From contig CAZOKZ010000001.1 in assembly GCA_964580585.1 (NCBI GenBank), positions 23,261-87,260 of the forward strand: a DNA stretch of 64,000 nt. Direction: 5' to 3'. Shown one piece after another: positions 2,964 through 57,692 of this stretch (the stretch's first letter is position 1; each line of letters opens with the position of its first letter). The notes under the pieces were generated by a model. The model was not told the DNA's origin, did not search any database, and saw only the letters and a list, made by a program, of their open reading frames with translations. The position numbers and the translations under genes are program-made. The DNA comes from an uncultured Candidatus Sumerlaeota bacterium (GTDB taxonomy: Bacteria > Sumerlaeota > Sumerlaeia > SLMS01 > JAHLLQ01).

Positions 2964-4454
2964 TTATGCCTTGTCTTGGGGGACTTCTTCCTCAGAAGGT
3001 TCGGCTTCTGTGGACGCTGCCGATTCAGACGCCTCTGTTTCTTCGGCATCCTCGGGAGTTTCCACCGTTACCTTGCCTGCCAGGCGATCGGCAAGTGCCG
3101 AAGCCGCCTTCAAGCGCTGACGTACGTCTTCGGTGATGCCAGCTTCGGAATCCTTGGTCATCTGTTGCAGGTTTTCCAAGTATTCCTTGGCGCCATCGAC
3201 GATGTCTTCTGCCAATTCCTGATCGTCGCCCGTAAAGCTGAGCAATTGCTGCGCGTCTGCTTCTGCCAGTTTTTCCACGCTGTTGAAGTCTTCCGTGCGG
3301 GTGAGAGCTTCGGCGGCGAATGCCGTCAAACCATCGATCTGGTTCAGGAAGTCGTTGAGGTACTGGAGAGAGATTGTCTCGAGACGTGCCATTTCGGCTT
3401 CGTCTTCCTGCTCGGTCACGTCAATTTTCCAACCGGTCAACTTCGCGGCCAGTTTTGCGTTTTGTCCGCGCTTGCCAATGGCTTTGGCGAGCGAGTCGTG
3501 TTCAACAACCACATGAGCGCGTTTTTCGATTTCGTTCAACTTGATCGAAACGATCTTCGCGGGGTTCAGGGCCGATGAAATAAACGATTCGGGAATCACC
3601 GAGTACGGCACGATATCGACTTTTTCGTTGTCGAGTTCACGCACGATCATCTGAACGCGCGAGCCTTTCATACCGACGCACGCACCGACGGGATCGACGT
3701 CCGGGTTCATGCTGTTGACGGCGATCTTGGTCCGAACGCCTGGCTCACGGGCAATTTCAACGATGCGAACGGTGGCGTCGCTGATTTCCGGTACTTCGGT
3801 GGCGAACAGTTGTTTCACCAGTTCAGAGCGCGTACGTGACAAAATGACCTGCGGGCCTTTTGGCGTGCGGCGAACATCGATGATCAAGCAGCGGATACGG
3901 TCGCCATAGCGATAACGCACACCGAAGGGAATTTCCTGGTTGGGGAGCAGGCATTCGACCTTGCCGAGTGCGACGATTGCGTCGCGACGTTCGTAACGTT
4001 GGACGATGCCCGTAACGACCGAGCCAACTTTGTCTTTATAATCGGTGTAAATACGATCGCGTTCGGCATCGCGCAGGCGTTGGAGAATGCCCTGGCGTAC
4101 GGATTGGGCGGCAATGCGGCCAAATTCTTCGGGATCGATTTCGACTTCGATTTCATCGTCGAGCATGTGCTGGGGGTTACGGGCTTTTGCGGCCAGAATG
4201 TCGATCTCCGTGCGGGGATCGTTCACCGAAACGACAACGCGTTTCTTGACATAAATGCGCATGTCGCCGGTTTCTAAATCCAGGTCGGGGCGTGGGAAAT
4301 GAAAGACCTGGGCGCGTTTGCTGGCCGCCGAGAGGATCGCCATTTCCACAGCATGTTTGATTACATCAGGTTCAAGGTCCTTTTCCTTCGAGATCATCTT
4401 GATCAGCGGTTTGACGTTCAGGGCCTTGATTTCGTTTTTTTTCTTCTTCGCCAC
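2964..4454 (-). CDS. nusA: Transcription termination/antitermination factor NusA with a long acidic C-terminal tail.
   Basis: N-terminal, S1 and KH region similarity to NusA; likely GTG start at 4454 preceded by GGAG; the ORF track extends to 4628. Confidence 0.85.
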   Translation of the reverse strand: MAKKKKNEIKALNVKPLIKMISKEKDLEPDVIKHAVEMAILSAASKRAQVFHFPRPDLDLETGDMRIYVKKRVVVSVNDPRTEIDILAAKARNPQHMLDDEIEVEIDPEEFGRIAAQSVRQGILQRLRDAERDRIYTDYKDKVGSVVTGIVQRYERRDAIVALGKVECLLPNQEIPFGVRYRYGDRIRCLIIDVRRTPKGPQVILSRTRSELVKQLFATEVPEISDATVRIVEIAREPGVRTKIAVNSMNPDVDPVGACVGMKGSRVQMIVRELDNEKVDIVPYSVIPESFISSALNPAKIVSIKLNEIEKRAHVVVEHDSLAKAIGKRGQNAKLAAKLTGWKIDVTEQEDEAEMARLETISLQYLNDFLNQIDGLTAFAAEALTRTEDFNSVEKLAEADAQQLLSFTGDDQELAEDIVDGAKEYLENLQQMTKDSEAGITEDVRQRLKAASALADRLAGKVTVETPEDAEETEASESAASTEAEPSEEEVPQDKA

Positions 4455-4624
4455 GGTTTTTTCTCCGCACGTTGGTATGAAGGGTGAAAACAGAAACGGG
4501 CCGCCTTTCGAGGCCGCCCGTCCGTTAGCACTCTTATTTGTAGGCAAAAGTTGTTCCACCGTGGCTGGAGAAGACAAGAGAAATGTTTTAAGGAGAGCGA
4601 AGAAAGGAAGAACGCCGTAACGCG

Positions 4625-5833
4625 TCACTCATTCGGCAGCTTATCCCGTAAGACTTTCCAGGCCAGATTAAGTCGTTTCGCTTTGGCTTCAGCCATTTTG
4701 CGGAAGTCTTCATCGTCGTGGAACTTGTCGGGATGGTAGCGCATTTGCATTTTACGGAAAATTTTCTGCGCGTATTCAAGTGTTGTATTTTCCGTCAGCG
4801 CGAACAACTCCAGCGCTTCCTCGAAGGAAATTTTATCTTCGACTCTCAGTTTTTCTTCAGAGGCTCCATTGTCTTCACGGGGCTCTTCTTCCTCGGGCTC
4901 ATCCGCTTTGGGGGGCGCTTTCGGGCGAGTTTCCCAACCGCCCATGGGATGAGCCTGGATTTTAGGGGCCAGGTCGTTGCGCAGCATTTCTTCGACATCG
5001 ATGACAGAAAGCGGGCGACCCATGCCTTCGAGCGCTTCACAAATATGACGTGTTGTTGGGGGCTCGAACGCACGTTCGATGAATTCCAAAATATAGCGAC
5101 CCAGGAAATTTCGCAAATGCGGATCGTCCAGGTACTGATCCGGCTTTGTGTTGGCGTCCACGGCGCCGTAATCCGCGGGCTCTGTGTCCCCATCGCCCAG
5201 CATGCGAGCAAATCGTCCGGCGGTCGCGCGCATCTGGCTGTAAATGGCCTGATAGGAGTGAAGCGACCCCGCTTGGATTGGAGGAATATCCATGTCGGAT
5301 TTCTTGCGGCCAAATCCCACGGCATCATTGAAAACAACAACTTTGCCTTTGTGTGGCGGTCCCACCATTTTTTTGGCGGAATCGGCAATTTCATGCGTCA
5401 TGCAGAGGATCAAATTTGCCCAGCGAATTTGAGGAGCCAGTAAGGGCTTGCTGCGATGCCCTTTCAGGCTAACCCGGTGTTCGTAGAGGAATTTGGCGAA
5501 TTCGCGCTCGGGTGGCGTGGGCACTTGCACGTCGATTCCGGCACTATCGAAGGACGTATCGAAGACGTTGAACTCCTTGGCAAAGTTCTGCGTCATCGCC
5601 CGAGCCATAGGCCCGCGGAACAGATCGTGATTGCTGAGAAAAAGGACATGCATTTTTATTGTGCGGTCGTTGCGATGCGTTTGAAAGTCTCGAATACGAT
5701 GAGACCAGTCTTGCCACGAGCCAATCAAATTATTGAGAATTCTTGGGCGAATTTTCACGAGACTCCTCAACCCGGGATTCTTCACAGGCTGTTCCATGAA
5801 AGACGGAATTGTACGGATCGTTCTTAAGCGCAT
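4625..5833 (-). CDS. Fusion protein with a low-molecular-weight PTP/ArsC-like domain (Ser replaces the CX5R cysteine: SNHDLFRGP) and a C-terminal J domain (HPD motif).
   Basis: VLFLSNHDLFRGPMA resembles the LMW-PTP P-loop with C to S; C-terminus YAQKIFRKMQMRYHPDKF ... KAKRLNLAWKVL is a J domain. The start is uncertain: it could be the internal Met at 5653. Confidence 0.55.
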   Translation of the reverse strand: MRLRTIRTIPSFMEQPVKNPGLRSLVKIRPRILNNLIGSWQDWSHRIRDFQTHRNDRTIKMHVLFLSNHDLFRGPMARAMTQNFAKEFNVFDTSFDSAGIDVQVPTPPEREFAKFLYEHRVSLKGHRSKPLLAPQIRWANLILCMTHEIADSAKKMVGPPHKGKVVVFNDAVGFGRKKSDMDIPPIQAGSLHSYQAIYSQMRATAGRFARMLGDGDTEPADYGAVDANTKPDQYLDDPHLRNFLGRYILEFIERAFEPPTTRHICEALEGMGRPLSVIDVEEMLRNDLAPKIQAHPMGGWETRPKAPPKADEPEEEEPREDNGASEEKLRVEDKISFEEALELFALTENTTLEYAQKIFRKMQMRYHPDKFHDDEDFRKMAEAKAKRLNLAWKVLRDKLPNE

Positions 5834-19405: not shown

Positions 19406-20707
19406 ATGAACGACCCACATGCCAGCCTTCGTTTTCTGACCCCGCGCAATTTGCTCGGTGTGTGGGCGGGGCTTTGTTTGTATCTGGGGATCTATTGGCG
19501 AAATCCTCAGTTGTTGTTTATTGGCACAGCGTCGTTCCTCGCACTGCTCTCCAGTATCTGGCAAGCATCACGGATGCTCCGTGACGTACGCATTGCGCGC
19601 CACCACACAGCACGCGCCTTCGAGGGCCAGTTCGTACACGTATCGCTTGAATTGGAATCGAAATCGAAGGCTCGCGAGCACTTGGTGATGTTGGAAGATT
19701 ACTTTCCACCGGGCGAAGCACTGCGCGTGAAGCACCTGATTCGTGACTCGTTTACGCGTGGAGAGCGCATAAACGTCGAGTATCTGGGCGAGATCGTCCA
19801 CCGACGCGGATTGTACACGCTCGGACCGGTGCGTCTCGAAGCCTACGATCCGATGGGGATAATCAAACGGAAACTGAAGATCGAAACGTTTACCTCGTTG
19901 TTGGTCTATCCATCTGCCGTTGATTTGCATATGACCGAATTGTTGGGCGATGGAACATTGGCGCATGTGGGTATTGAAACAACGCGACGTCCTGGAAGAA
20001 GTACCGAATATACCGGCTTACGTCAGTATCGCATTGGCGACAGCCCGAACACCATCCATTGGCGTTCGACAGCACGTGTCGGGCATTTGATGGTAAAAGA
20101 ATTTCAGGAAGACATGATGACGCATGTGTCGATCTTTATCGATATTGGGCGATTGGGACTAACCGGACTCGGCGATCAGACATCGATCGAGTACGCCATC
20201 AAGGCCGCTGCCAGTTTAGCCAAACGCGCCATCGAAAACGCCCATTATGTGCAAGTATTCGCGGTAGGGACGGAGATCGAGCATATTCCCCTCGGGTCCG
20301 GAAGCCGCCATTTGCTGATGATTCTCGACCGGCTGGCATTTTTGAAGGCTCAAGGCGATTCCGTCTTTCCGGAAACGGTGCTGCACTACACGCCGTTGCT
20401 TAAACCCGGAGGAACAGTGATTCTCGTTCTCAGTTTAACGACGCTTTCCATCGATACCATCGAACCTTTGATCGCGGCGTTGCTTTATCGGCGTTTATTA
20501 CCCGTTGTGGTGTTGATCGACGACCGCGCGTTCATCAAACTTTACCGCGAACAGGAAACGAGTCATAGTGAAGGATTGAGTATCGAAGACGCCGTGAAAT
20601 ATCTGACAGCTCAGGGAGTTCGCGTTCACCTGGTGACAAAAGCCAAGTCTCCGAAACAGGCTCTATTACAGGGTCTGGAAAGGAGTTGCCTCGCTGATGA
20701 ATATTGA
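19406..20707 (+). CDS. DUF58 (vWA-like) protein of the MoxR-DUF58-TGase class, with two N-terminal TM helices.
   Basis: Diagnostic LRQYRIGDSPNTIHWRSTAR motif. Confidence 0.7.
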   Translation: MNDPHASLRFLTPRNLLGVWAGLCLYLGIYWRNPQLLFIGTASFLALLSSIWQASRMLRDVRIARHHTARAFEGQFVHVSLELESKSKAREHLVMLEDYFPPGEALRVKHLIRDSFTRGERINVEYLGEIVHRRGLYTLGPVRLEAYDPMGIIKRKLKIETFTSLLVYPSAVDLHMTELLGDGTLAHVGIETTRRPGRSTEYTGLRQYRIGDSPNTIHWRSTARVGHLMVKEFQEDMMTHVSIFIDIGRLGLTGLGDQTSIEYAIKAAASLAKRAIENAHYVQVFAVGTEIEHIPLGSGSRHLLMILDRLAFLKAQGDSVFPETVLHYTPLLKPGGTVILVLSLTTLSIDTIEPLIAALLYRRLLPVVVLIDDRAFIKLYREQETSHSEGLSIEDAVKYLTAQGVRVHLVTKAKSPKQALLQGLERSCLADEY

Positions 20708-21920
20708 ACTGGACGAGGAACAACCATCGCGTAAGACGGTACGGTTTACCGCGTCGCAATGTGACCTTGTGCACCGCCTGGTCGTGGCGTTGATGTGTTA
20801 TTGTGCGCTATCGATTGCATTCTGGGAATCTGGCGGATGGATGCATCCTGCGGTATATTTTTTCCTCACGTTATGTATCGGTGGATTGTACGTTGGACGT
20901 AAATTGGGTATGCTGATGGTGGAGTTTTTCGCCCCCTTTCAGTACCGTGAAAAGTTTGCCCTGTTCCTGGGTCATCTGGTGCTGATGGGAATACCCTGGT
21001 ATCTGGGATTCAAAGGTTGGAACTATATCTGGAGCGTGTTACTGGCACTGCAATGCGGGCAAACGATCAACCGTGTTGTTTTTGGACGATTGTATGCCGT
21101 TTCCTTCCTTCTTCTATTCGGCCCTCTTTGTTCTGGAATCCAGCCGCCGTTTGTTTTCGTGACGAGTTGGATGTTGTTTTTGTTGCTGGCAATGCGTTTG
21201 AAGTTTTTAAATTTCCGTCTGTTGGAAAGCCGACATCCAGGTCGTTCTCTGGCATTTTGGGAGAGTATCCGTTTCACAATCCCCTCTGTCTTTTTGCCAT
21301 GGACCGCCGCGGTAGCTTTGTACTTCTGGTTCGCAGTGCTATTGCAGGGAAAACTGCGCGTTCCTCAATTCGATGAAGGTGTTTGGGGCAAAAATGCGCG
21401 CATGGGTCCCGTGGAATACAGCGATCTTATCTGGGATGCGGTTTTCATCATGGCAATCATCATCGGTCTGCTCGTGTTGATGTACTGGATCGAGCACCAG
21501 TTGCAAAAACTCCGGTCGGCGGAAGGCACCGAAATCGAAGATATGTACGCAACACATGAAGGCCGCGATGAGGTATCCGGTTCGGAGCCCAAACCGTTGG
21601 AAGAACCTTTTGGCGACGATGCGCGTGGACGAATTTTAGCCCGATTCCGTGCTTATTATCGGCAACTGGGACAAACCGGTTGGGGGCGTCGCTCAGATGA
21701 AACCGTTTGGGAATATTTGAACCGCTTGGCAACAGAGTTATTGCACAACGAACCGATACCTTCGACAATGGGACCGCTGTTCGACCGCGCGTGTTATTCT
21801 TCCGAAGCGATCAGCAACGAAGAAGCGGAGAAATTTTTGCGCGCGGCGGATGAATCGGAACGGCAAATGATGTCTGCCGTGGAAAGTAAACGCGCCGAAA
21901 AGGCAAACGAGCCGAAGTAA
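20697..21920 (+). CDS. Polytopic membrane protein with a C-terminal DUF4129-like cytoplasmic domain.
   Basis: About seven predicted TM helices; C-terminal RFRAYYRQLGQTGWGRRSDETVWEYL resembles DUF4129; overlaps the DUF58 gene. Confidence 0.5.
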   Translation: MNIELDEEQPSRKTVRFTASQCDLVHRLVVALMCYCALSIAFWESGGWMHPAVYFFLTLCIGGLYVGRKLGMLMVEFFAPFQYREKFALFLGHLVLMGIPWYLGFKGWNYIWSVLLALQCGQTINRVVFGRLYAVSFLLLFGPLCSGIQPPFVFVTSWMLFLLLAMRLKFLNFRLLESRHPGRSLAFWESIRFTIPSVFLPWTAAVALYFWFAVLLQGKLRVPQFDEGVWGKNARMGPVEYSDLIWDAVFIMAIIIGLLVLMYWIEHQLQKLRSAEGTEIEDMYATHEGRDEVSGSEPKPLEEPFGDDARGRILARFRAYYRQLGQTGWGRRSDETVWEYLNRLATELLHNEPIPSTMGPLFDRACYSSEAISNEEAEKFLRAADESERQMMSAVESKRAEKANEPK

Positions 21921-22735
21921 TGACCCCAGAATCTCCGAATACCGTTTCCACTCCTCCAGAGCAAAATTCCAACTCCTGGGAATTAATGCATGGCGATTGT
22001 TTCGATATCGCACCGAGACTTCAGCCGGAAAGCTTTTCGCTGATCTATCTGGACCCTCCATTTTTTACGGGGAAAGTCCACTCTTCACCGGAAAAAACGA
22101 ACAATGGCTTTCGAGATGTCTGGCAAAACGATATCGTCGATTTCACCGATTACCTGGGAGCGCGGATCGAACGTCTGATCCCCCTTCTAACGCCGACGGG
22201 GTCCATGTTACTTCATCTGGATTGGCATGCGGTACATTATTTGAAGGTCCGGTGCGACAAACTCTTCGGAATGCAGAATTTCCAAAATGAAATCATCTGG
22301 GCATACCGGTCGGGTGGCGGAACAAAGAAACGATACGGCCGTAAACACGACACGATTTTGTGGTACAGTAAGGGGAAAAAGTTTTGCTTCAACACAGACG
22401 AAGCCCGCGTGCCGTACGATGCAACCATTGCCGCCAAACGCGCGCACCTGTTCCATGAAAATGGCAAGGTCGCGGGGGACGTGCTCGATATTTCGCGTCC
22501 TCCGAATCATGCGCGGGAGTGGACGGGCTGGCCGACACAAAAACCCATGGCGTTGCTCGATTGGCTGACTCGCGTCCACAGCAAGCCGGGCGATTTGGTG
22601 GGAGATTTTTTCTGTGGCAGCGGCACGACTCTGGTAGCCGCCACAAATCTTGGCCGCCGCGCATTGGGTTGCGATATGAGCCTGGATGCGTTGGAAATCG
22701 CCAACAGCCGATTACGGCAATCAAAATTGGACTAA
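21920..22735 (+). CDS. DNA methyltransferase, beta class (N6-adenine or N4-cytosine; PF01555-like), apparently an orphan.
   Basis: Motif IV LIYLDPPF at the N-terminus and motif I FFCGSGTT at the C-terminus; ATGA overlap with the upstream membrane-protein gene. Confidence 0.8.
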   Translation: MTPESPNTVSTPPEQNSNSWELMHGDCFDIAPRLQPESFSLIYLDPPFFTGKVHSSPEKTNNGFRDVWQNDIVDFTDYLGARIERLIPLLTPTGSMLLHLDWHAVHYLKVRCDKLFGMQNFQNEIIWAYRSGGGTKKRYGRKHDTILWYSKGKKFCFNTDEARVPYDATIAAKRAHLFHENGKVAGDVLDISRPPNHAREWTGWPTQKPMALLDWLTRVHSKPGDLVGDFFCGSGTTLVAATNLGRRALGCDMSLDALEIANSRLRQSKLD

Positions 22736-24868: not shown

Positions 24869-25105
24869 GAGCGAGGTATCCTGTTGGGGCGAAAGTCAGA
24901 CGAAAGCACCGTCCAAAACCATGCCGAATGGCGTCAAGACACTTTGACGCCGTCGGGTGGATGAATTATTTAAAGATGAAAGGAACATCTGCGACCAACG
25001 TGGCTTCGATGTTTTTCAGAAAAAAAATCCATCTCCTGCAATTTTATTCCGCCGGTGCACTTGTGTCTGGTGAAGGAGCAATTTTCACGGAAGGACAGAC
25101 GAAGG

Positions 25106-26914
25106 ATGCTCTCTCGCAACAGTGAACGCTCGGACATCGATTTGGTGCGCGCCGCGCAGGGTGGCGACGACAAGGCCTACACGCAACTGGTCGATCGGCA
25201 TTTCGGTCTCGTGTACTCGATTGCATATGCCCGCATGAGCAATCGCGAGGCTGCCGAGGACTTGGCGCAGGAGGTTTTTCTCCAGGTGTTTCTGCACGTC
25301 AAGCAACTCGACACGCGGCGGAAGGTGAATTTCCCCGCCTGGGTGGCGCGTATTACGCGGAATCTGGCGTTTCACTGGCAGCGAAAAAACCAACGCCGTT
25401 CGGAGCTGGTTCCCATGGTGCCACTGGACAAGGATTCGATGCAGGTTTCCGACCACGAGACGGACCATTCACGCGACCGGATGATCGCGGCGGAACAACG
25501 CCGCGCCGTCGAGCGCGCGGTGCTGGATTTACCCGCCGATCAACGCGAAATGGTGGTGCTGCATTACACCGAGAAGTTGAGTAAAAAGCAGATTGCTCAA
25601 CGCCTCGGTATGCATCCTTCGACGGTGGGCCGCCAGATCGACCGCGCGGTTTCGAGCATGAAGGGACTGGTTCAAACGTCGCTCGAAAGCACGGCGCCGA
25701 CGTTGGCGGCTTCGGCCAAGGCACCGGTGTATGCGGCGGGGTTGATTTCTGCCGTGGCGGCCATGAACGAAGCGGCGCGCGCCAATTTGCTCGCCTCGCC
25801 AACGTTCACGTCGGCGGCTGCCCAAGCGTTCGAGACCACGAGAAATGTATCCCGTCTGTCCACCTTTGTGAAATGGCTCCTCCCAATTATCCTTTATGGA
25901 GGAACGACCATGAGTACGGCAAAAATTGTTGGTGGAATCAGTGCAGCAGTAGGTGTTTTGGTATTATCGGGAGTGGGGTACCAGTATTACGAATCGACGA
26001 AAAAAACCACCAAGTTAACCGAGATGAGTTCAGCCGTGGTGACGTCGTCGGGCGAAGTGAATGAAACCAACCCGGAAATTCGACTTTGGGTGGACTTAAC
26101 TCCCGGCAAAACATGGAAAAGCGAAACGCAAGTTGAAACAACCAGTGACGTAGAGGTGAGTTTGAAACCAGGTATTATCAAGTCGCAAACCGTCGTCAGA
26201 ACGCAAATGGCTCACCGCACGTTGCCGCCGAATCAACAAGGACAAGCGCAGGTTGAAAACCTTGTCAGTGGTATGCAAATGACGGCCGTAGTGGATGGCA
26301 AACAAGTCGATCCCAAGGAAACGGGAATGGATATCGGCAGGGCGATGGCGGGTACAAAGACCATCGATGTGATGGACAATTTTGGACGTATTGTTACATC
26401 CGTTGAAGATGACGAAACGAAAAAAGATAATATCATGACGAACCCGGCGGTTCTAGCGTTGGGAAACATCGACAGAATCGCCATGGGGGAACTGCCTGAA
26501 AAATCCGTTCGGGTGGGCGATACATGGACTCGCGTCATCAGCGCTCCTGATTTCGTCCAATTCCAGTCACGCTACGAATGCAAGTTCGACAGAATCGAAG
26601 AAACTCCCCAAGGAAGAGTTGCTGTGATTACGCGTCGCTCGGTCGTGGATTTGGATAAACCAACGCCGCTTGGGAAAATTCCGATTCCAGAAGCAGGAAC
26701 CGAAGCTGATATGACGTTTCTATCGATGACAGGTGAAACGCGCCATATTTCACGATTGCTGATCGATGAAGGCGAATGGCTGAATCACTTTGCGACAACG
26801 AGTTTCGACCTCACAACGCGAATGGACTTAACTGTTCAGGGCAAACCCATATCGATTGATATGAAAACCAGTGGCTCCGAAACACGTACAACCGAAATGA
26901 AGTACGGAGTGTAA
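25106..26914 (+). CDS. ECF (sigma-70 family) sigma factor with no stop codon before an Ala-rich linker, a single TM helix and an extracytoplasmic domain of about 310 aa of unknown fold. An internal ATG at 25910 with a GGAGGA RBS may also express the C-terminal module on its own.
   Basis: Sigma2 region (DLAQEVFLQVF) and sigma4 region (LDLPADQREMVVLHYTEKLSKKQIAQRLGMHPSTV); the ORF continues without a stop into a paralog of 27122-28132; GTG alternative start at 25055. Confidence 0.6.
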   Translation: MLSRNSERSDIDLVRAAQGGDDKAYTQLVDRHFGLVYSIAYARMSNREAAEDLAQEVFLQVFLHVKQLDTRRKVNFPAWVARITRNLAFHWQRKNQRRSELVPMVPLDKDSMQVSDHETDHSRDRMIAAEQRRAVERAVLDLPADQREMVVLHYTEKLSKKQIAQRLGMHPSTVGRQIDRAVSSMKGLVQTSLESTAPTLAASAKAPVYAAGLISAVAAMNEAARANLLASPTFTSAAAQAFETTRNVSRLSTFVKWLLPIILYGGTTMSTAKIVGGISAAVGVLVLSGVGYQYYESTKKTTKLTEMSSAVVTSSGEVNETNPEIRLWVDLTPGKTWKSETQVETTSDVEVSLKPGIIKSQTVVRTQMAHRTLPPNQQGQAQVENLVSGMQMTAVVDGKQVDPKETGMDIGRAMAGTKTIDVMDNFGRIVTSVEDDETKKDNIMTNPAVLALGNIDRIAMGELPEKSVRVGDTWTRVISAPDFVQFQSRYECKFDRIEETPQGRVAVITRRSVVDLDKPTPLGKIPIPEAGTEADMTFLSMTGETRHISRLLIDEGEWLNHFATTSFDLTTRMDLTVQGKPISIDMKTSGSETRTTEMKYGV

Positions 26915-27121
26915 CAAGAACAGTAAACCGACTATCCGAAAATATAAAACCGCGCTTGAATTCACCAAATACACACAGATTCATGAATAACAGGTTGCAC
27001 ACTTTGTATCGCAAGAAGCTACGATTGTGCGGGTGAGCAATGGAGCGAAACACAGAGCATGAACATTCGCGAATCGACGTAAAATGGCCTTCCGCCAATT
27101 ATTTTTCATGGGAGAACGACC

Positions 27122-28132
27122 ATGAGTAAGGCGAAAATCATCGGCGGAATCAGTACGGCAACCGGTGTTTTGGTATTATCGGGAATTGGTTATTATTATT
27201 TCGAGACAACGAAAAAGACCTCTCAATTGACCGAGATGGCTCCAGCCGTGGTCACCACCAATTCGGCGGTGTCGAACGAAAACAATCCCGCTATTCGATT
27301 GTGGGTGGATTTAGTTCCGGGAAAAACCTGGAAAAGCCAAACGAATATTGAATCTTCAAGCACAGTTCAAGGAGCGATAATCCCCGAACCCATTGAGCAA
27401 CAAACGACCATACGCATTCATTCGACACACCGAATTTTACCACCGAATGAAGAGGGACAGACACAAATCGACAACCTGATCGACGACGCTCAAATGACCG
27501 TTGTGGTTAATGGTGAAGAAGTTGATTTGAAAAGTAAAGGAGTCGATGTCATCGGTTCCATGATCGGAACCAATACTATAGACGTTGTGGATTCATTCGG
27601 AAGAATCATGTCCGAAGTAAAAGACGAGCAGCAAAACGATACCTTTATGTCTAACCCCGCCTTATTGGCATTGGGAAACATCGATCGGATCGCTCTGTGC
27701 GAACTTCCAGAAAAACCCGTTCGCATAGGAGACACTTGGACTCGAACGATCACGGTCCCGGAAATCCCAAGTCTCAATATTTTGTACGAATGCAAATTCG
27801 AGCGTATCGAAGACACTCCACAAGGCCGTGTAGCCGTCATCACGAGGTATGCCAATAGCGACCTGCAAAATCTTAATGCACCCATGGGCAAATTACCGAT
27901 GGAAGAAATCGATGGCGATGCGGACTTTACGTTTCTGGCGATGAAAGGCGAGACCCATCATATTTCGCGCTTGGCGCTCGATCAGGGGCAATGGATCGAT
28001 CACGTATCCACGACAACATCGGATGTTAAAACACGGATGGACTTTGCCTTTCAAGAGAAGCCGATTTCGATTGAAATGACAACTCTTGGTAACGAGAAAC
28101 GTGTCACAACGATGAACTATGGAGCCGAGTAG
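27122..28132 (+). CDS. Single-pass membrane protein of unknown function, paralog (about 55% aa identity) of the C-terminal module of the ECF sigma ORF.
   Basis: MSKAKIIGGISTATGVLVLSGIGYYYFETTKKT against MSTAKIVGGISAAVGVLVLSGVGYQYYESTKKT; the upstream 40 nt including the RBS is also duplicated. Confidence 0.6.
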   Translation: MSKAKIIGGISTATGVLVLSGIGYYYFETTKKTSQLTEMAPAVVTTNSAVSNENNPAIRLWVDLVPGKTWKSQTNIESSSTVQGAIIPEPIEQQTTIRIHSTHRILPPNEEGQTQIDNLIDDAQMTVVVNGEEVDLKSKGVDVIGSMIGTNTIDVVDSFGRIMSEVKDEQQNDTFMSNPALLALGNIDRIALCELPEKPVRIGDTWTRTITVPEIPSLNILYECKFERIEDTPQGRVAVITRYANSDLQNLNAPMGKLPMEEIDGDADFTFLAMKGETHHISRLALDQGQWIDHVSTTTSDVKTRMDFAFQEKPISIEMTTLGNEKRVTTMNYGAE

Positions 28133-31352: not shown

Positions 31353-33110
31353 TCAAACCAATTTAAACCATTCAACGCCTATGGCTAACATACGTTTGTC
31401 TGCACTATCGGTTGGGCAACTCGCATCGGGCAACTCTAAAATGACGATATTATTTTCTGTAAGATAAGATGAAGATACTGGAAATAAAATAGTCGTGGTT
31501 TCCGTTAGCTCTTTTTCTCCTAATAATTGACCGTTCAAGAAAACACGAATTCGTTGCGATTTTATTCTTCCATTATCCAAGAATGGGAATCCACGTAATG
31601 TAAAATAGCGAGGTGTCTTTTCTTCTGAGAAATGAAGTAATATCGTAGCCTGTTGACCATCTGTCCAACGAAAAGTACCTTCAGGGTACGCTGCCCATCC
31701 TGACCAAAGCACCGGGTGTGCCAGAACAGACCCAGGATTAATATTTGTACCAATCGAATATTCAGGGAATTCAGGTGGCAATGATGCGGGAAGCAGCCAT
31801 GCAAGGCTTTGCGGTTGTTTCCAGTCCCAAAGTCGCCATTTCATTTCGTCAATACTAAATGGTTTTTCATTCCATTGCCACGATTTCCACGAAAATGCAG
31901 CGGGAGCGTTTTGTGCAATGCTTAGAATGCTCGCGATAAATATAATTCCCCCAATACAATGGCGTTTCCAGCCTGTTTTCGGCATTTGCGAATATTCTTT
32001 CATCACACCGAGCACCATCGGAATGAACCAGGGAATCATATCGAAAAATAAGCGTGGGCCATAACTGAACCCGCCATACCAATACCATCTCCAGTACACG
32101 GCTATCAGCAAAAAGTGAACTCCAAATACACATAGAGCACATTTGACGAATATATTATTCCATATGAGCGATGGTTTAAATAACAAACCCGCGAGAGGGA
32201 GTAATAATATTGGAGAATAAAAGAACAAACCTCTGGATGGACTGATAAGTGATCCCAGAATGGACTCACCAACATTCCCATCTGCCGTTCGTGCTGCGTA
32301 AAAATATCTTGGCAAAAATTGATTATAATGGCTGTATGAATAAAAGATGAATAGAAGTCCCCAGAAAAACAAGGTTCCAAACATGATCACTGCTGATTTT
32401 TTGTTCATCTTGATAAGAATGACGATGATGGCAATCATTGAAATAGCAAACGTTGGTCGGGAAAAAAACATAAACGCTAATATTGTCCCTAAAAGTGACG
32501 ATAGCCAGTATTTTGTTGGGAATTTTTCATGTTGACACAGCAGGATAATTGCTACGATGAGAAGGAATACGCCCCATGTGCTCGACCAAAGCGCGCGCGT
32601 CCCGGTGCTCCAAACCGAAGTCCCCAAGGCAAATATTATTGTACAAATAATGGAAGGTACTATACTAAGCTCATTTGAAAAGTAAAGAAAGACAAGAGCG
32701 CTTGCGAGAGCCATTAAAAAACCAGAAAGTATTCGCTGCATCAAATCTTCGTTACTGGGATTATATTTGCCTTCCTGATCGAAACAACTTAATCCCCCAA
32801 GCTTGAATAAAGCAACGAATGGGATGCTGAGAATACTGCTTCCAGGCGGATAATAATAATACAAGCGACCTTGATATTCTTCTATTTGATAGGGAAGCCC
32901 CGATTCGTTTAACGAAGGGTGTCGATTAGGGTCTAAGGGGCGTTGAAAATATTGAGTTAGATCGAAGCTCCCCGTTTCCATCAAATGTTCGCTCAACAAC
33001 AGCGAATAACGAGAGTCCGCCATTTGTGTAACGGGTCCACTTAGAAAAAGAATCCAGAACAGGATGAAGAGTATTGAACTAATGAGGATTCTTTTGCTAT
33101 TCAAAACCAT
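31353..33110 (-). CDS. Polytopic membrane protein, GT-C-like glycosyltransferase (ArnT/PMT-like) with a C-terminal extracytoplasmic domain; markedly AT-rich gene.
   Basis: More than ten predicted TM helices; local GC about 40% against about 55% for the rest of the window. Confidence 0.45.
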   Translation of the reverse strand: MVLNSKRILISSILFILFWILFLSGPVTQMADSRYSLLLSEHLMETGSFDLTQYFQRPLDPNRHPSLNESGLPYQIEEYQGRLYYYYPPGSSILSIPFVALFKLGGLSCFDQEGKYNPSNEDLMQRILSGFLMALASALVFLYFSNELSIVPSIICTIIFALGTSVWSTGTRALWSSTWGVFLLIVAIILLCQHEKFPTKYWLSSLLGTILAFMFFSRPTFAISMIAIIVILIKMNKKSAVIMFGTLFFWGLLFIFYSYSHYNQFLPRYFYAARTADGNVGESILGSLISPSRGLFFYSPILLLPLAGLLFKPSLIWNNIFVKCALCVFGVHFLLIAVYWRWYWYGGFSYGPRLFFDMIPWFIPMVLGVMKEYSQMPKTGWKRHCIGGIIFIASILSIAQNAPAAFSWKSWQWNEKPFSIDEMKWRLWDWKQPQSLAWLLPASLPPEFPEYSIGTNINPGSVLAHPVLWSGWAAYPEGTFRWTDGQQATILLHFSEEKTPRYFTLRGFPFLDNGRIKSQRIRVFLNGQLLGEKELTETTTILFPVSSSYLTENNIVILELPDASCPTDSADKRMLAIGVEWFKLV

Positions 33111-55442: not shown

Positions 55443-57692
55443 TCAGAAGTCCGCCTTCAAAACGGCGCCCTTCGCAGCGTTAGTCACCAAGCGACTGTAT
55501 CGTTTCAACCAGCCCTTGGTCACGCGTTGGGGATTGGGAGTCCAATTTTTCCGTCGTTCGGCAAGTTCATCATCGGACACCAGCAACTCGATTTTTTTAT
55601 CATAGATATCGATCGCAATCTTGTCTCCGTTCTGCACCAGACCAATCGTTCCGCCCTCGGCGGCTTCCGGCGAAACGTGACCAATGCATGCACCGCGCGT
55701 CCCACCCGAGAAACGCCCATCGGTAACGAGCGCCACTTGACTGCCGAGGCCACGCCCCATGATGTAACTTGTCGGTGCCAACATCTCCTGCATACCCGGG
55801 CCGCCTTTGGGGCCTTCGTACCGAATGATCACCACATGCCCCGCATCGACTTCCCCCGCCAGAATGCCCTCGCACGCGGCTTCCTGCGATTCATAGACAA
55901 TCGCCGCACCGGTAAATTTCTTCATATTCTCTTCAACGCCCGCCGACTTGACCACGCAACCCTCTGGCGCGAGATTTCCGTACAGAATATTCAAACCACC
56001 CTGTTTTGAATATGCCTTTGGCACCGTCCGAATACAATCGTACGGATCGAACTTGGCGGGTTTGACGGGATAGGTTCCACCGAGTTCGGAAACCGAGCGC
56101 GTCTTCGTCGCCTTTACCATGCCGTCGCCTTCGTGGAACGTCGCTTTTGCAATGGTGGCTCCGTCGTCGGCGAGGCCATCGAACACGAGCACGCCAACGG
56201 GGGACGGAGTCTTTCCACGTTCCCACAAAACCGCAACGGACTCGCCGTCCAGGTCAGCCACACACGCCGCCGTGCCTTGATCGCCGCGATGCAGCCATCC
56301 GTCGATGAATTGGCTGAGCGAAGCGCCCGAAACCGTTGCATCTGTTGTAAATTGGGCACGAACCGCTGCTGAATTTTGCGCATTCCAAGCGGCTGCAAAT
56401 GCCGCCGCCAGCGCCTCGGTTGTTGCCGTCTTAACCAACGTTGTCACGCCACCGGGGATATCTGAACGTGCTCCAGCCCCCTGCATCTTGCCAAGCGCGG
56501 TGTGCAGTTCGCGCACGGACTTGCCTGTCGGCACTGCACCCGACTGGTTCAGCACCAACGCCTCGCGCGCAACCTTCGCGCCGCGAATATCCCAGGCATC
56601 GATATTTTCACCGAGCGTTTTCCCCGTCACCGTCAACACGTTTTCGTTCAACACGCCCGGCATGCCTCGACGAATTTCGCCGAGAATTGTATGAATACCG
56701 CCCGCGTGATGCACGTCTTCGATGTGGTAAGCCGACGAAGGCGAAACCTTGCTGATGTTGGGCGTCGAAGCGGAAATTTCGTTCAGGTCTTTCATCGTGA
56801 AATCGACTTCGGCTTCGCTCGCCACCGCCATCGTATGCAGCACCGTATTTGTCGAGCCACCCATCGCCACATCGAGCACCATCGCATTGTGGAACGCCTC
56901 GCGTGTGGCGATGTCGCGTGGTTTGATGTCCTTATCCACGAGTTCCAGGATCTGGCGCGCAGCACGGCGATACAGCTCAATGCGTGATTCGCTCGTGGCA
57001 AGCACCGTTCCGTTGCCGGGCAGCGCCAGACCCAATGCTTCATTCAAGCAGTTCATCGAGTTTGCCGTGAACATCCCACTGCATGAACCACACGTTGGGC
57101 AGGCAAAATCTTCTAGTGTTTTTAGCTGCGCATCGTCGATTTTACCGATTTTGCGCGCACCGACACCTTCGAATACCGAAATCAAATCCACTGTTTTGCC
57201 GTCCGGCGTTACACCTGCTTCCATCGGGCCACCGCTGACAAAAAGCGTTGGAATATTCAACCGCATCGTGGCCATCATCATGCCCGGCACGATCTTGTCG
57301 CAGTTCGGAATGCAAATCATTCCGTCGAAACAATGAGCCTCGACCACGCTTTCCACGCAGTCTGCGATCAATTCGCGACTCGGCAGGCTGTACTTCATGC
57401 CAAAGTGCCCCATCGCGATGCCGTCATCGACACCAATGGTATTGAACAAGAACGGAACGCCACCCGCTTCGCGAACGGCTTGTTTGACAAACTGGCCGAC
57501 CGCGTCCAGATGTGCGTGACCCGGAATAATGTCAATGTAACTGCACGCAATGGCGATAAACGGCTTGTTTTCGTCGCCATCGACAAAGTTACCCGTGGCC
57601 TTGAGCAGCGAACGATGCGGCGCGCGCTCGAAGCCTTTCTTAACGGTATCCGACCGCATTGCGCGTGGTTTGCCGTTTCCTTGTTCCGTCAT
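55443..57692 (-). CDS. ilvD: Dihydroxy-acid dehydratase with an inserted domain of about 140 aa (NTF2/SnoaL-like) in the C-terminal half.
   Basis: ILVD_EDD signatures (CDKIVPG, SGGTRG, Cys ligands); 749 aa against typical lengths of 560-620; insertion between HTILGEI and AYSKQGGL. Confidence 0.85.

Follow-up and report, generated by a model that had tools for sequence, protein, structure and literature searches.

Does the gene at 25106-26914 (+) of the window, the whole 64-kb stretch of DNA analysed here, encode one protein or two? Its open reading frame (ORF) runs from an extracytoplasmic function (ECF) sigma factor through an alanine-rich linker and a single transmembrane helix into an outer domain distantly related to the DUF6263 family, and just ahead of the helix it holds a Shine-Dalgarno (SD) sequence and an in-frame ATG; the next gene, at 27122-28132, is a stand-alone paralog of the part that follows this ATG. 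Comparison with 18 relatives indicates that a translation initiation region is kept by selection inside the ORF, from which a sigma-less isoform, with only the transmembrane helix and the sensor, would be made. The fusion belongs to a known kind, and the predicted independent translation of its sensor half, strongly backed by the comparisons, would extend to the whole clade.

The proposed start site inside the sigma factor gene

The fused gene is laid out as follows, with residues numbered from the ATG at 25106.

25106-26914, +: fused gene, consisting of ECF sigma factor, linker, transmembrane helix and DUF6263-like outer domain (ORF listing, sequence)
25187-25399, +: sigma region 2, residues 28-98 (Pfam PF04542, Sigma70_r2, E 2.1e-16; AlphaFold2 (AF2) predicted local distance difference test (pLDDT) >90)
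25502-25654, +: sigma region 4, residues 133-183 (Pfam PF08281, Sigma70_r4_2, E 1.6e-11; AF2 pLDDT >90)
25673-25909, +: Ala-rich cytoplasmic linker, residues about 190-268 (AF2 helices, family alignment)
25898-25902, +: internal SD sequence GGAGG, within GGA GGA (Gly-Gly), 7 nt before the internal ATG (sequence, relatives)
25910-25912, +: internal in-frame ATG, Met269, where a sigma-less isoform of 334 aa is proposed to begin (codon conservation, weak RNA structure)
25925-25990, +: single transmembrane helix, residues about 274-295, IVGGISAAVGVLVLSGVGYQYY (hydrophobic stretch; AF2 helix 271-300; same place in relatives)
25991-26911, +: extracytoplasmic all-beta domain, residues 296-602 (profile searches; subthreshold PF19777; AF2 model of the paralogous domain)

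The codons around the internal ATG were surveyed in the DNA of the 18 relatives and the window, 19 family members in all. In protein alignments, most relatives have a methionine before the transmembrane helix, in the pattern G-G-x-x-M-x-x-x-K, and 15 of the 19 members carry Met or Val four residues ahead of the conserved Lys that opens the helix. These residues are encoded by 13 ATG and 2 GTG codons, with GTG used in both Val cases. In particular, the upstream glycine codon is GGA in all 15, whereas elsewhere in these genes GGA encodes the Gly in 19% of 217 G-[GVAE] dipeptides (P about 1e-11; per-gene product 3e-11). Further, a GGAG or GAGG lies 4-12 nt upstream of the codon in 14 of the 15 (each of the 14 having GGAG, at a spacing of 5-10 nt from the ATG or GTG), compared to 11% of 588 other in-frame ATG or GTG codons in the same genes (binomial 5e-13); the fifteenth member, L171, has GAAGGAA in place of GGAG. 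Identity among the sigma domains of these 15 members has a median of only 46% and a maximum of 65%, so that their synonymous sites are effectively independent.

Moreover, the GGA(G) is kept even though the dipeptide that it encodes differs, as in L004 (Gly-Val, GGA GTC), L006 (Gly-Ala, AAA GGA GCC) and L169 (Gly-Val). The four members that lack the Met or Val (L005, L082, L083 and L163) have no start codon there, and three of them also have no SD sequence, with L163 keeping only a stray GAGG. Local RNA folding around the site is weaker than the mean of the gene in 15 of 15 members (50-nt window; mean z 0.79; Wilcoxon 6e-5), a modest effect in a region that is also locally GC-poorer. The suggestion, made in the initial annotation, that the membrane-anchored module is also translated alone thus gains strong comparative support, as an SD sequence and a start codon have been retained at synonymous sites in 15 diverged relatives.

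In four loci (L164, L166, L163 and L084), the annotated start of the sigma gene has a weaker SD sequence than the internal start of the same gene, or none. Provided that translation begins at both of them, the short isoform could outnumber the full-length protein.

SctQ/HrcQ of type III secretion (PMC8553256) is a known example of an in-frame internal start from which a C-terminal isoform is made, and such starts have been mapped genome-wide in E. coli with retapamulin (bioRxiv 10.1101/520783). The resemblance lies in an SD sequence and start in frame inside an ORF, with a short product that is the C-terminal part of the long one; in those cases the isoform was shown by experiment, whereas here it is read from sequence and would be a membrane-anchored sensor without an output domain. 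No in-frame internal start was found described in sigma or anti-sigma genes in the literature, one apparent match having concerned mCherry. If the prediction is true, the family offers a clean example of one gene nested within another that codes for a signalling protein, and a conserved regulatory layer invisible to annotation pipelines, which report one ORF and therefore cannot see the sensor-only isoform.

The fused family, its linker and the tandem paralog

The fused ORF reads from its ATG at 25106 (or from an alternative upstream GTG at 25055) to the stop codon at 26912-26914 without an internal stop, giving 602 aa. After region 4 there follow some 80 Ala-rich residues, the stretch GGTTMSTAK, a 22-residue hydrophobic helix and then 307 residues. 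The protein is an ECF (group 4) sigma-70 factor in that regions 2 and 4 were found by Pfam and NCBIfam, which gave no match to regions 1.1 and 3; TIGR02937 (sigma70-ECF, NCBIfam) scores 96.3 bits against a cutoff of 42.9, and the AF2 fold of the sigma part matches ECF sigmas. All NCBIfam sigma subfamily models fall below their own cutoffs on the fused protein (for example, TIGR02989 with 79.6 against 124.55).

The same arrangement is found throughout the family. The identical 602-aa protein is present in NCBI, on a 218-kb contig, and in a separate Logan assembly of SRR13617028, although the two possibly share reads. All close relatives are fused proteins of 476-966 aa in the order sigma, linker, transmembrane helix and outer domain, with outer domains that vary; P0003-P0010, for example, have 476-690 aa and are 37-46% identical over sigma and linker. 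At least 18 relatives, which come from different samples and were assembled with different programs, keep the same continuous frame. It passes openly through sigma, linker and transmembrane helix in L002-L006 (Candidatus Sumerlaeota metagenome-assembled genomes (MAGs) and one unclassified MAG) and in L082-L084 (metagenomes), with the possible exception of L083, which has no obvious transmembrane helix. The closest relatives with a named source are Candidatus Sumerlaeota MAGs, at 34-42% identity. No unfused sigma-plus-linker protein of about 270 aa is among the 54 matches, and the next-nearest relatives are ordinary unfused ECF sigmas of 180-235 aa, the more distant ones having about 190-210 aa; because all close relatives are fused as well, the fused state is ancestral for the clade.

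These results bear out the initial annotation in its account of a sigma ORF that continues without a stop into a transmembrane helix and outer domain, as read from the sequence, with regions 2 and 4 recognised by Pfam. C-terminal transmembrane extensions, which it had proposed to look for in relatives, are present in all close ones, L083 again being a possible exception. Since the fusion is genuine and the norm in its family, a membrane-tethered ECF sigma in one polypeptide, the one-component form that had been proposed, is the right reading.

At several related loci, genes of this kind have as neighbours genes whose small products carry a prepilin-type N-terminal methylation domain (N_methyl). 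These neighbours directly follow the fused sigma genes at L168 (2467-3138) and L169 (4063-4701), and at L172 (2410-3728) one follows a FecR anti-sigma gene with the same outer domain; some overlap the preceding gene by 4 nt. They are possible conserved targets or partners, and none adjoins the pair in the window.

The linker is modelled by AF2 as four helices (206-219, 222-230, 232-246 and 253-268) at pLDDT 50-80. The helix at about 205-245 is conserved across the family alignment, and the last one is aromatic and juxtamembrane and ends in Gly-Gly. No PF13490 match, and thus no zinc finger (ZAS, zf-HC2), lies between the sigma and the transmembrane helix. The AF2 sigma model best matches anti-sigma-bound sigmas (SigW/RsiW and CnrH/CnrY; TM-score 0.72) and is poorly matched by polymerase-bound extended forms (TM-score 0.35-0.47). 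The four helices, the conservation of one of them and the closed model suggest that the linker may add autoinhibition of the sigma.

A second, larger group of fused ECF sigmas (P0012-P0050), of about 540 aa and with a multi-transmembrane C-terminal part, shares the first conserved linker helix, FT.GVLAALPA....KA, with the family of the window, and this helix may be an element that fused ECFs in general carry close to the sigma. Most of the loci with a similar match to the sigma core (28-32% identity) are from Acidobacteriota MAGs.

The second copy of the membrane-anchored module and the duplicated block ahead of both copies are placed as follows.

25866-25909, +: upstream block, copy 1, coding in the fused gene (alignment, about 74% identity)
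27076-27121, +: upstream block, copy 2, non-coding, with an in-frame TAA at 27080-27082 (alignment, 1-nt indel)
27110-27114, +: SD sequence of the paralog, GGGAG, 7 nt before the ATG at 27122 (sequence)
27122-28132, +: stand-alone paralog of 336 aa, with 5 cytoplasmic residues, a transmembrane helix (27137-27202) and the same outer domain (BLASTP E 2e-143)

Over its whole length the paralog aligns with residues 269-602 of the fusion, and the identity of 58% (E 2e-143) is close to the 55% given in the initial annotation. The block of about 40 nt that had been noted ahead of both ATGs extends in alignment over about 45 nt, at about 74% identity with one 1-nt indel, and the TAA reported 14 codons upstream of the second ATG is the one listed above. 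Over the first 150 nt the two copies are 72% identical, and over the rest of the coding body 59-62%. Their synonymous sites are saturated (proportion of synonymous differences, pS, 0.73), so the duplication is old, and the ratio of nonsynonymous to synonymous divergence (dN/dS) of 0.11 places both copies under purifying selection. The identity of the block possibly reflects nucleotide-level constraint as a ribosome-binding region in both contexts, or else a gene-conversion tract. With only five cytoplasmic residues, the paralog cannot contact a sigma.

A scan found no terminator or sigma-70-type promoter between the fused gene and the paralog. A similarity seen by eye upstream of both genes (GAACAT...CGT) was dropped for its too-short spacer. 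There are no further copies of the module in the window, a weak match at 56620-56877 being a chance one inside a dihydroxy-acid dehydratase gene.

At L170 (P0009; logan:SRR21362769_186), where the sigma is fused to an unrelated outer domain, a free paralog of that domain lies two genes downstream, at 4325-5041; it has 238 aa and a signal peptide and is 38.7% identical to the fused domain over 194 aa. A free homologue near a fused sensor is therefore not unique to the genome of the window.

The outer domain

Pfam PF19777 (DUF6263) scores 15.7 bits on the paralog and 10.2 bits on the fusion, and because both values lie below the gathering threshold of 26.7, the outer domain is a distant relative of DUF6263 rather than a Pfam-level member. 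The paralog searched alone matches only itself and P0055 (E 1.4e-4 among 5.8 billion sequences), a 281-aa secreted protein that has the motif PEKPVRIGDTWT in common with it and gives a subthreshold DUF6263 match of its own. A profile of three sequences retrieves the DUF6263 family of Bacteroidota and Ignavibacteria; P0101, for example, is matched at E 3e-38 and itself passes the Pfam threshold with 30.7 bits, and many of the profile matches carry a precomputed PF19777 assignment. The statement that the domain has no recognisable family was therefore mistaken. With DUF6263 (about 280 aa) it shares an all-beta domain and the conserved motif P-E-K-P-V-R-I-G-D-T-W, but the identity is only 20-30%, and the proteins of the window are anchored by a transmembrane helix whereas DUF6263 proteins are exported with a signal peptide, most of them being free secreted proteins or lipoproteins. 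The AF2 model of the paralog's domain consists of long antiparallel strands and is all-beta (pLDDT 71.7; predicted TM-score, pTM, 0.69); among solved structures none matches it well.

In an exhaustive profile search, the same domain was found on five further sigma fusions of 564-774 aa (P0133, P0170, P0173, P0195 and P0197). It also ends two classical anti-sigma factors, P0172 (zf-HC2, FecR, transmembrane helix, domain) and P0145 (FecR, transmembrane helix, domain). Its presence on both kinds of protein makes it a recurrent extracytoplasmic module of ECF signalling. The two anti-sigma factors resemble the fusion in that the DUF6263-like domain follows a single transmembrane helix, with similar residues just past the helix; they differ in that sigma and anti-sigma are separate proteins and the sigma-binding domain is recognisable, whereas in the window the sigma is fused and no such domain is detectable. 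The initial annotation had held that a match of the domain to a classical anti-sigma family would speak against its reading. Such a match does exist in zf-HC2/FecR factors, but what they share with the fusion is the sensor module and not the sigma-binding domain.

At L172 (about 1300-1320), the gene for P0145 has the purine-rich sequence GGA AGG GAA GGC ACC followed by ATG just before its transmembrane helix. From this single case, the sensor-only isoform may extend beyond sigma fusions to a FecR-type anti-sigma factor.

A literature search found no paper that mentions DUF6263, for which the present proteins supply a first functional context, as a periplasmic module of sigma/anti-sigma signalling.

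Mechanism, rival explanations and the surrounding window

Fused, membrane-spanning ECF sigmas are known and few have been studied; they bear on the question of how, with no separate anti-sigma factor, their threshold is fixed. C-terminal extensions have been described in nineteen ECF groups (PMC7826278), and IutY, ECF52 and ECF53 are membrane-tethered sigmas (PMC8999054, PMC5411451). IutY of Pseudomonas putida (ECF243) remains inactive until Prc and RseP cut it and the sigma domain is released (PMC5411451, PMC8999054). The order of Pfam domains, the helix and the AF2 model show the same layout in the window, where one polypeptide combines an N-terminal cytoplasmic ECF sigma, a single transmembrane helix and a periplasmic domain at the C-terminus. 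In contrast, the outer part of IutY is of FecR type and works with a TonB-dependent receptor, whereas that of the window is DUF6263-like, with no FecR match and no receptor gene nearby, and its sigma is not FecI-like by NCBIfam; further, neither an internal start nor a free paralog is described for IutY in PMC5411451 and PMC8999054.

The actinobacterial ECF52, ECF53 and ECF48 proteins (for example, SCO4117) likewise join an ECF core to a membrane-spanning extension and an extracytoplasmic sensing domain, and activation by proteolysis has been proposed for them (PMC5826349, PMC8999054). Their extensions start with a zinc finger (ZAS) and carry Pro-rich and carbohydrate-binding parts, unlike the Ala-rich linker of the window, which has no zinc finger, and the closest relatives of the window's protein are in Candidatus Sumerlaeota MAGs and not in Actinobacteria. 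Overall, the fused protein is a probable counterpart in function of the IutY and ECF52/53 fusions and a member of neither group, having no FecR domain, TonB-dependent receptor partner or zinc finger. By analogy, IutY would be the best functional model for the full-length protein, which most likely works in the same way.

In the favoured explanation, the sigma and its Ala-rich helical linker would lie in the cytoplasm, with one transmembrane helix leading to the DUF6263-like, beta-rich domain outside. As in the sigma/anti-sigma hybrid IutY, the sigma would be kept inactive at the membrane, where the conserved linker helix may pack on it, until the outer domain receives a signal and the protein is cut first at site 1 and then within the membrane (site 2), which frees the sigma. 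From the same mRNA, the internal ribosome-binding site (RBS) and start would direct the synthesis of a second product, made only of the transmembrane helix and the outer domain and unable to bind sigma, as the comparative evidence suggests. Because the internal start is located after the linker, this product would be without any sigma-binding part, and the start is not a relic of a sigma/anti-sigma gene boundary. The old tandem duplication would have turned the internal cistron and its RBS into the separate gene at 27122-28132. In the last step, which is the weakest, the sigma-less forms would act on the fused sensor by pairing with it, shielding it or competing with it, or would bind its ligand, and could thereby set the threshold for release.

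Taken as a whole, the combination of a tethered ECF sigma, a selected internal start, a duplicated sensor cistron and threshold-setting sigma-less forms is considered probable, if well short of assured. The broader proposal, that the clade consists of nested two-product genes whose sensor-only form, and in the window also its duplicated copy, would join or compete with the fused form in the membrane and in this way gate the proteolytic release of sigma, is offered tentatively, as a possibility that is less likely than not. No self-encoded, sensor-only modulator of this sort was found described in sigma/anti-sigma signalling.

Several points weigh against the favoured explanation. The sites before the transmembrane helix were picked by a peptide motif that contains glycine, so that the strict test is the synonymous one (GGA in 15 of 15) and not G-richness. 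An SD sequence precedes 15 of 40 ordinary gene starts in the window, a moderate share that depends on crude start calls, and translation from the internal start is predicted from sequence only. Gene conversion, instead of selection on a ribosome-binding region, could account for the raised identity in the 45-nt block and over the first 150 nt. As to the linker, residues 190-268 give no Pfam match to an anti-sigma domain at E <1, and a hidden Markov model of the linker has no significant match in 8301 ORFs that neighbour the genes of unfused relatives. Closed models of ECF sigmas are common in AF2, and for this reason the closed model lends autoinhibition little weight. Finally, the analysis identified neither a site-2 protease nor a target promoter nor a regulon; a dyad search in 16 upstream regions of the family gave nothing above shuffled controls, with GCAA-N16/17-CGTC present at 4 of the 16 loci against a shuffle maximum of 5.

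Among the rival explanations, the one that survives best, though it is unlikely, takes the paralog or short isoform as a working envelope protein, with the fused copy sensing the same ligand or state and controlling its own expression. L170 (P0009), where the outer domain also has a free signal-peptide paralog, the prevalence of free secreted proteins and lipoproteins in DUF6263 and the purifying selection on both copies are what it would lead one to expect, and cellulosome RsgI anti-sigma factors, whose modules resemble those of the enzymes under their control, provide a parallel. Against it, the search for a target promoter gave none ahead of the paralog and none shared by the sigma genes of the family, and no paper on DUF6263 was found. 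The internal start fits this rival as well, which departs from the favoured explanation only in the role of the free form.

The internal RBS and ATG might also be a fossil of gene fusion, left over from a once separate downstream gene whose upstream neighbour lost its stop, in which case only the full-length protein matters. Stand-alone forms of the domain, either membrane-anchored or secreted, do exist, the paralog shows that the module can be its own gene, and GC content drops from 57% to 47% near the junction. Nevertheless, a neutral relic would not hold a synonymous GGA in 15 of 15 lineages whose sigmas are about 46% identical, nor would GGAG be retained while the dipeptide changes. The fused state is moreover uniform in the clade, with no unfused sigma-plus-linker protein among the 54 matches, and the start lies 80 aa past sigma region 4 and not at the expected boundary of a sigma and an anti-sigma gene. 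The chance that the site is such a fossil is accordingly rated as slim.

Slightly slimmer is the chance that the site makes no second protein and that its SD-like sequence slows ribosomes before a late transmembrane helix, as an aid to membrane targeting. The element always lies immediately upstream of the helix, which begins about 270 residues from the N-terminus and would thus be targeted late. However, a pause leaves unexplained why an ATG or GTG (13 and 2 cases) is conserved at the right spacing, why both elements are lost jointly in four members (apart from the stray GAGG of L163) and why the local RNA structure is weaker; the same element is, besides, the true start of the paralog. Pausing at SD-like sequences is itself disputed, which counts against this reading too.

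An artefact, in which a sequencing error (as the initial annotation had considered) or an assembly error joined a sigma gene to the gene downstream through loss of a stop or a frameshift, is scarcely credible: nothing favours it beyond its prior and the chance that one set of reads underlies both the NCBI record and the Logan assembly, while both of these give the same ORF, the frame is open in all close relatives, the same frame and part order recur in at least 18 of them, and the linker is conserved at the protein level.

The fused gene and its paralog have ftsY, ruvA, miaA and bcp as neighbours in the window. GC content is 56-58% over the sigma and linker, 47-49% over 26000-28000 and in both copies of the transmembrane helix and domain, and again 54-59% in miaA, in line with the slightly reduced value of about 46% noted earlier for the region. 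The step at 25900-26000 fits a module of different origin, or merely the composition of an Ala-rich linker.

Elsewhere in the window, no tRNA, rRNA or Rfam family was found at gathering thresholds. A dihydroxy-acid/6-phosphogluconate dehydratase ORF of 748 aa (55443-57692, -) has its N-terminal domain at residues 42-362 and its C-terminal domain at 551-742, and the roughly 190 residues between the two seem longer than expected. Two ORFs, at 31353-33110 (-, 584 aa) and 20697-21920 (+, 407 aa), have no Pfam match at E <1e-5, and the latter is flanked by a DUF58 gene (19406-20707) and a gene for an N6/N4 DNA methylase (21920-22735).

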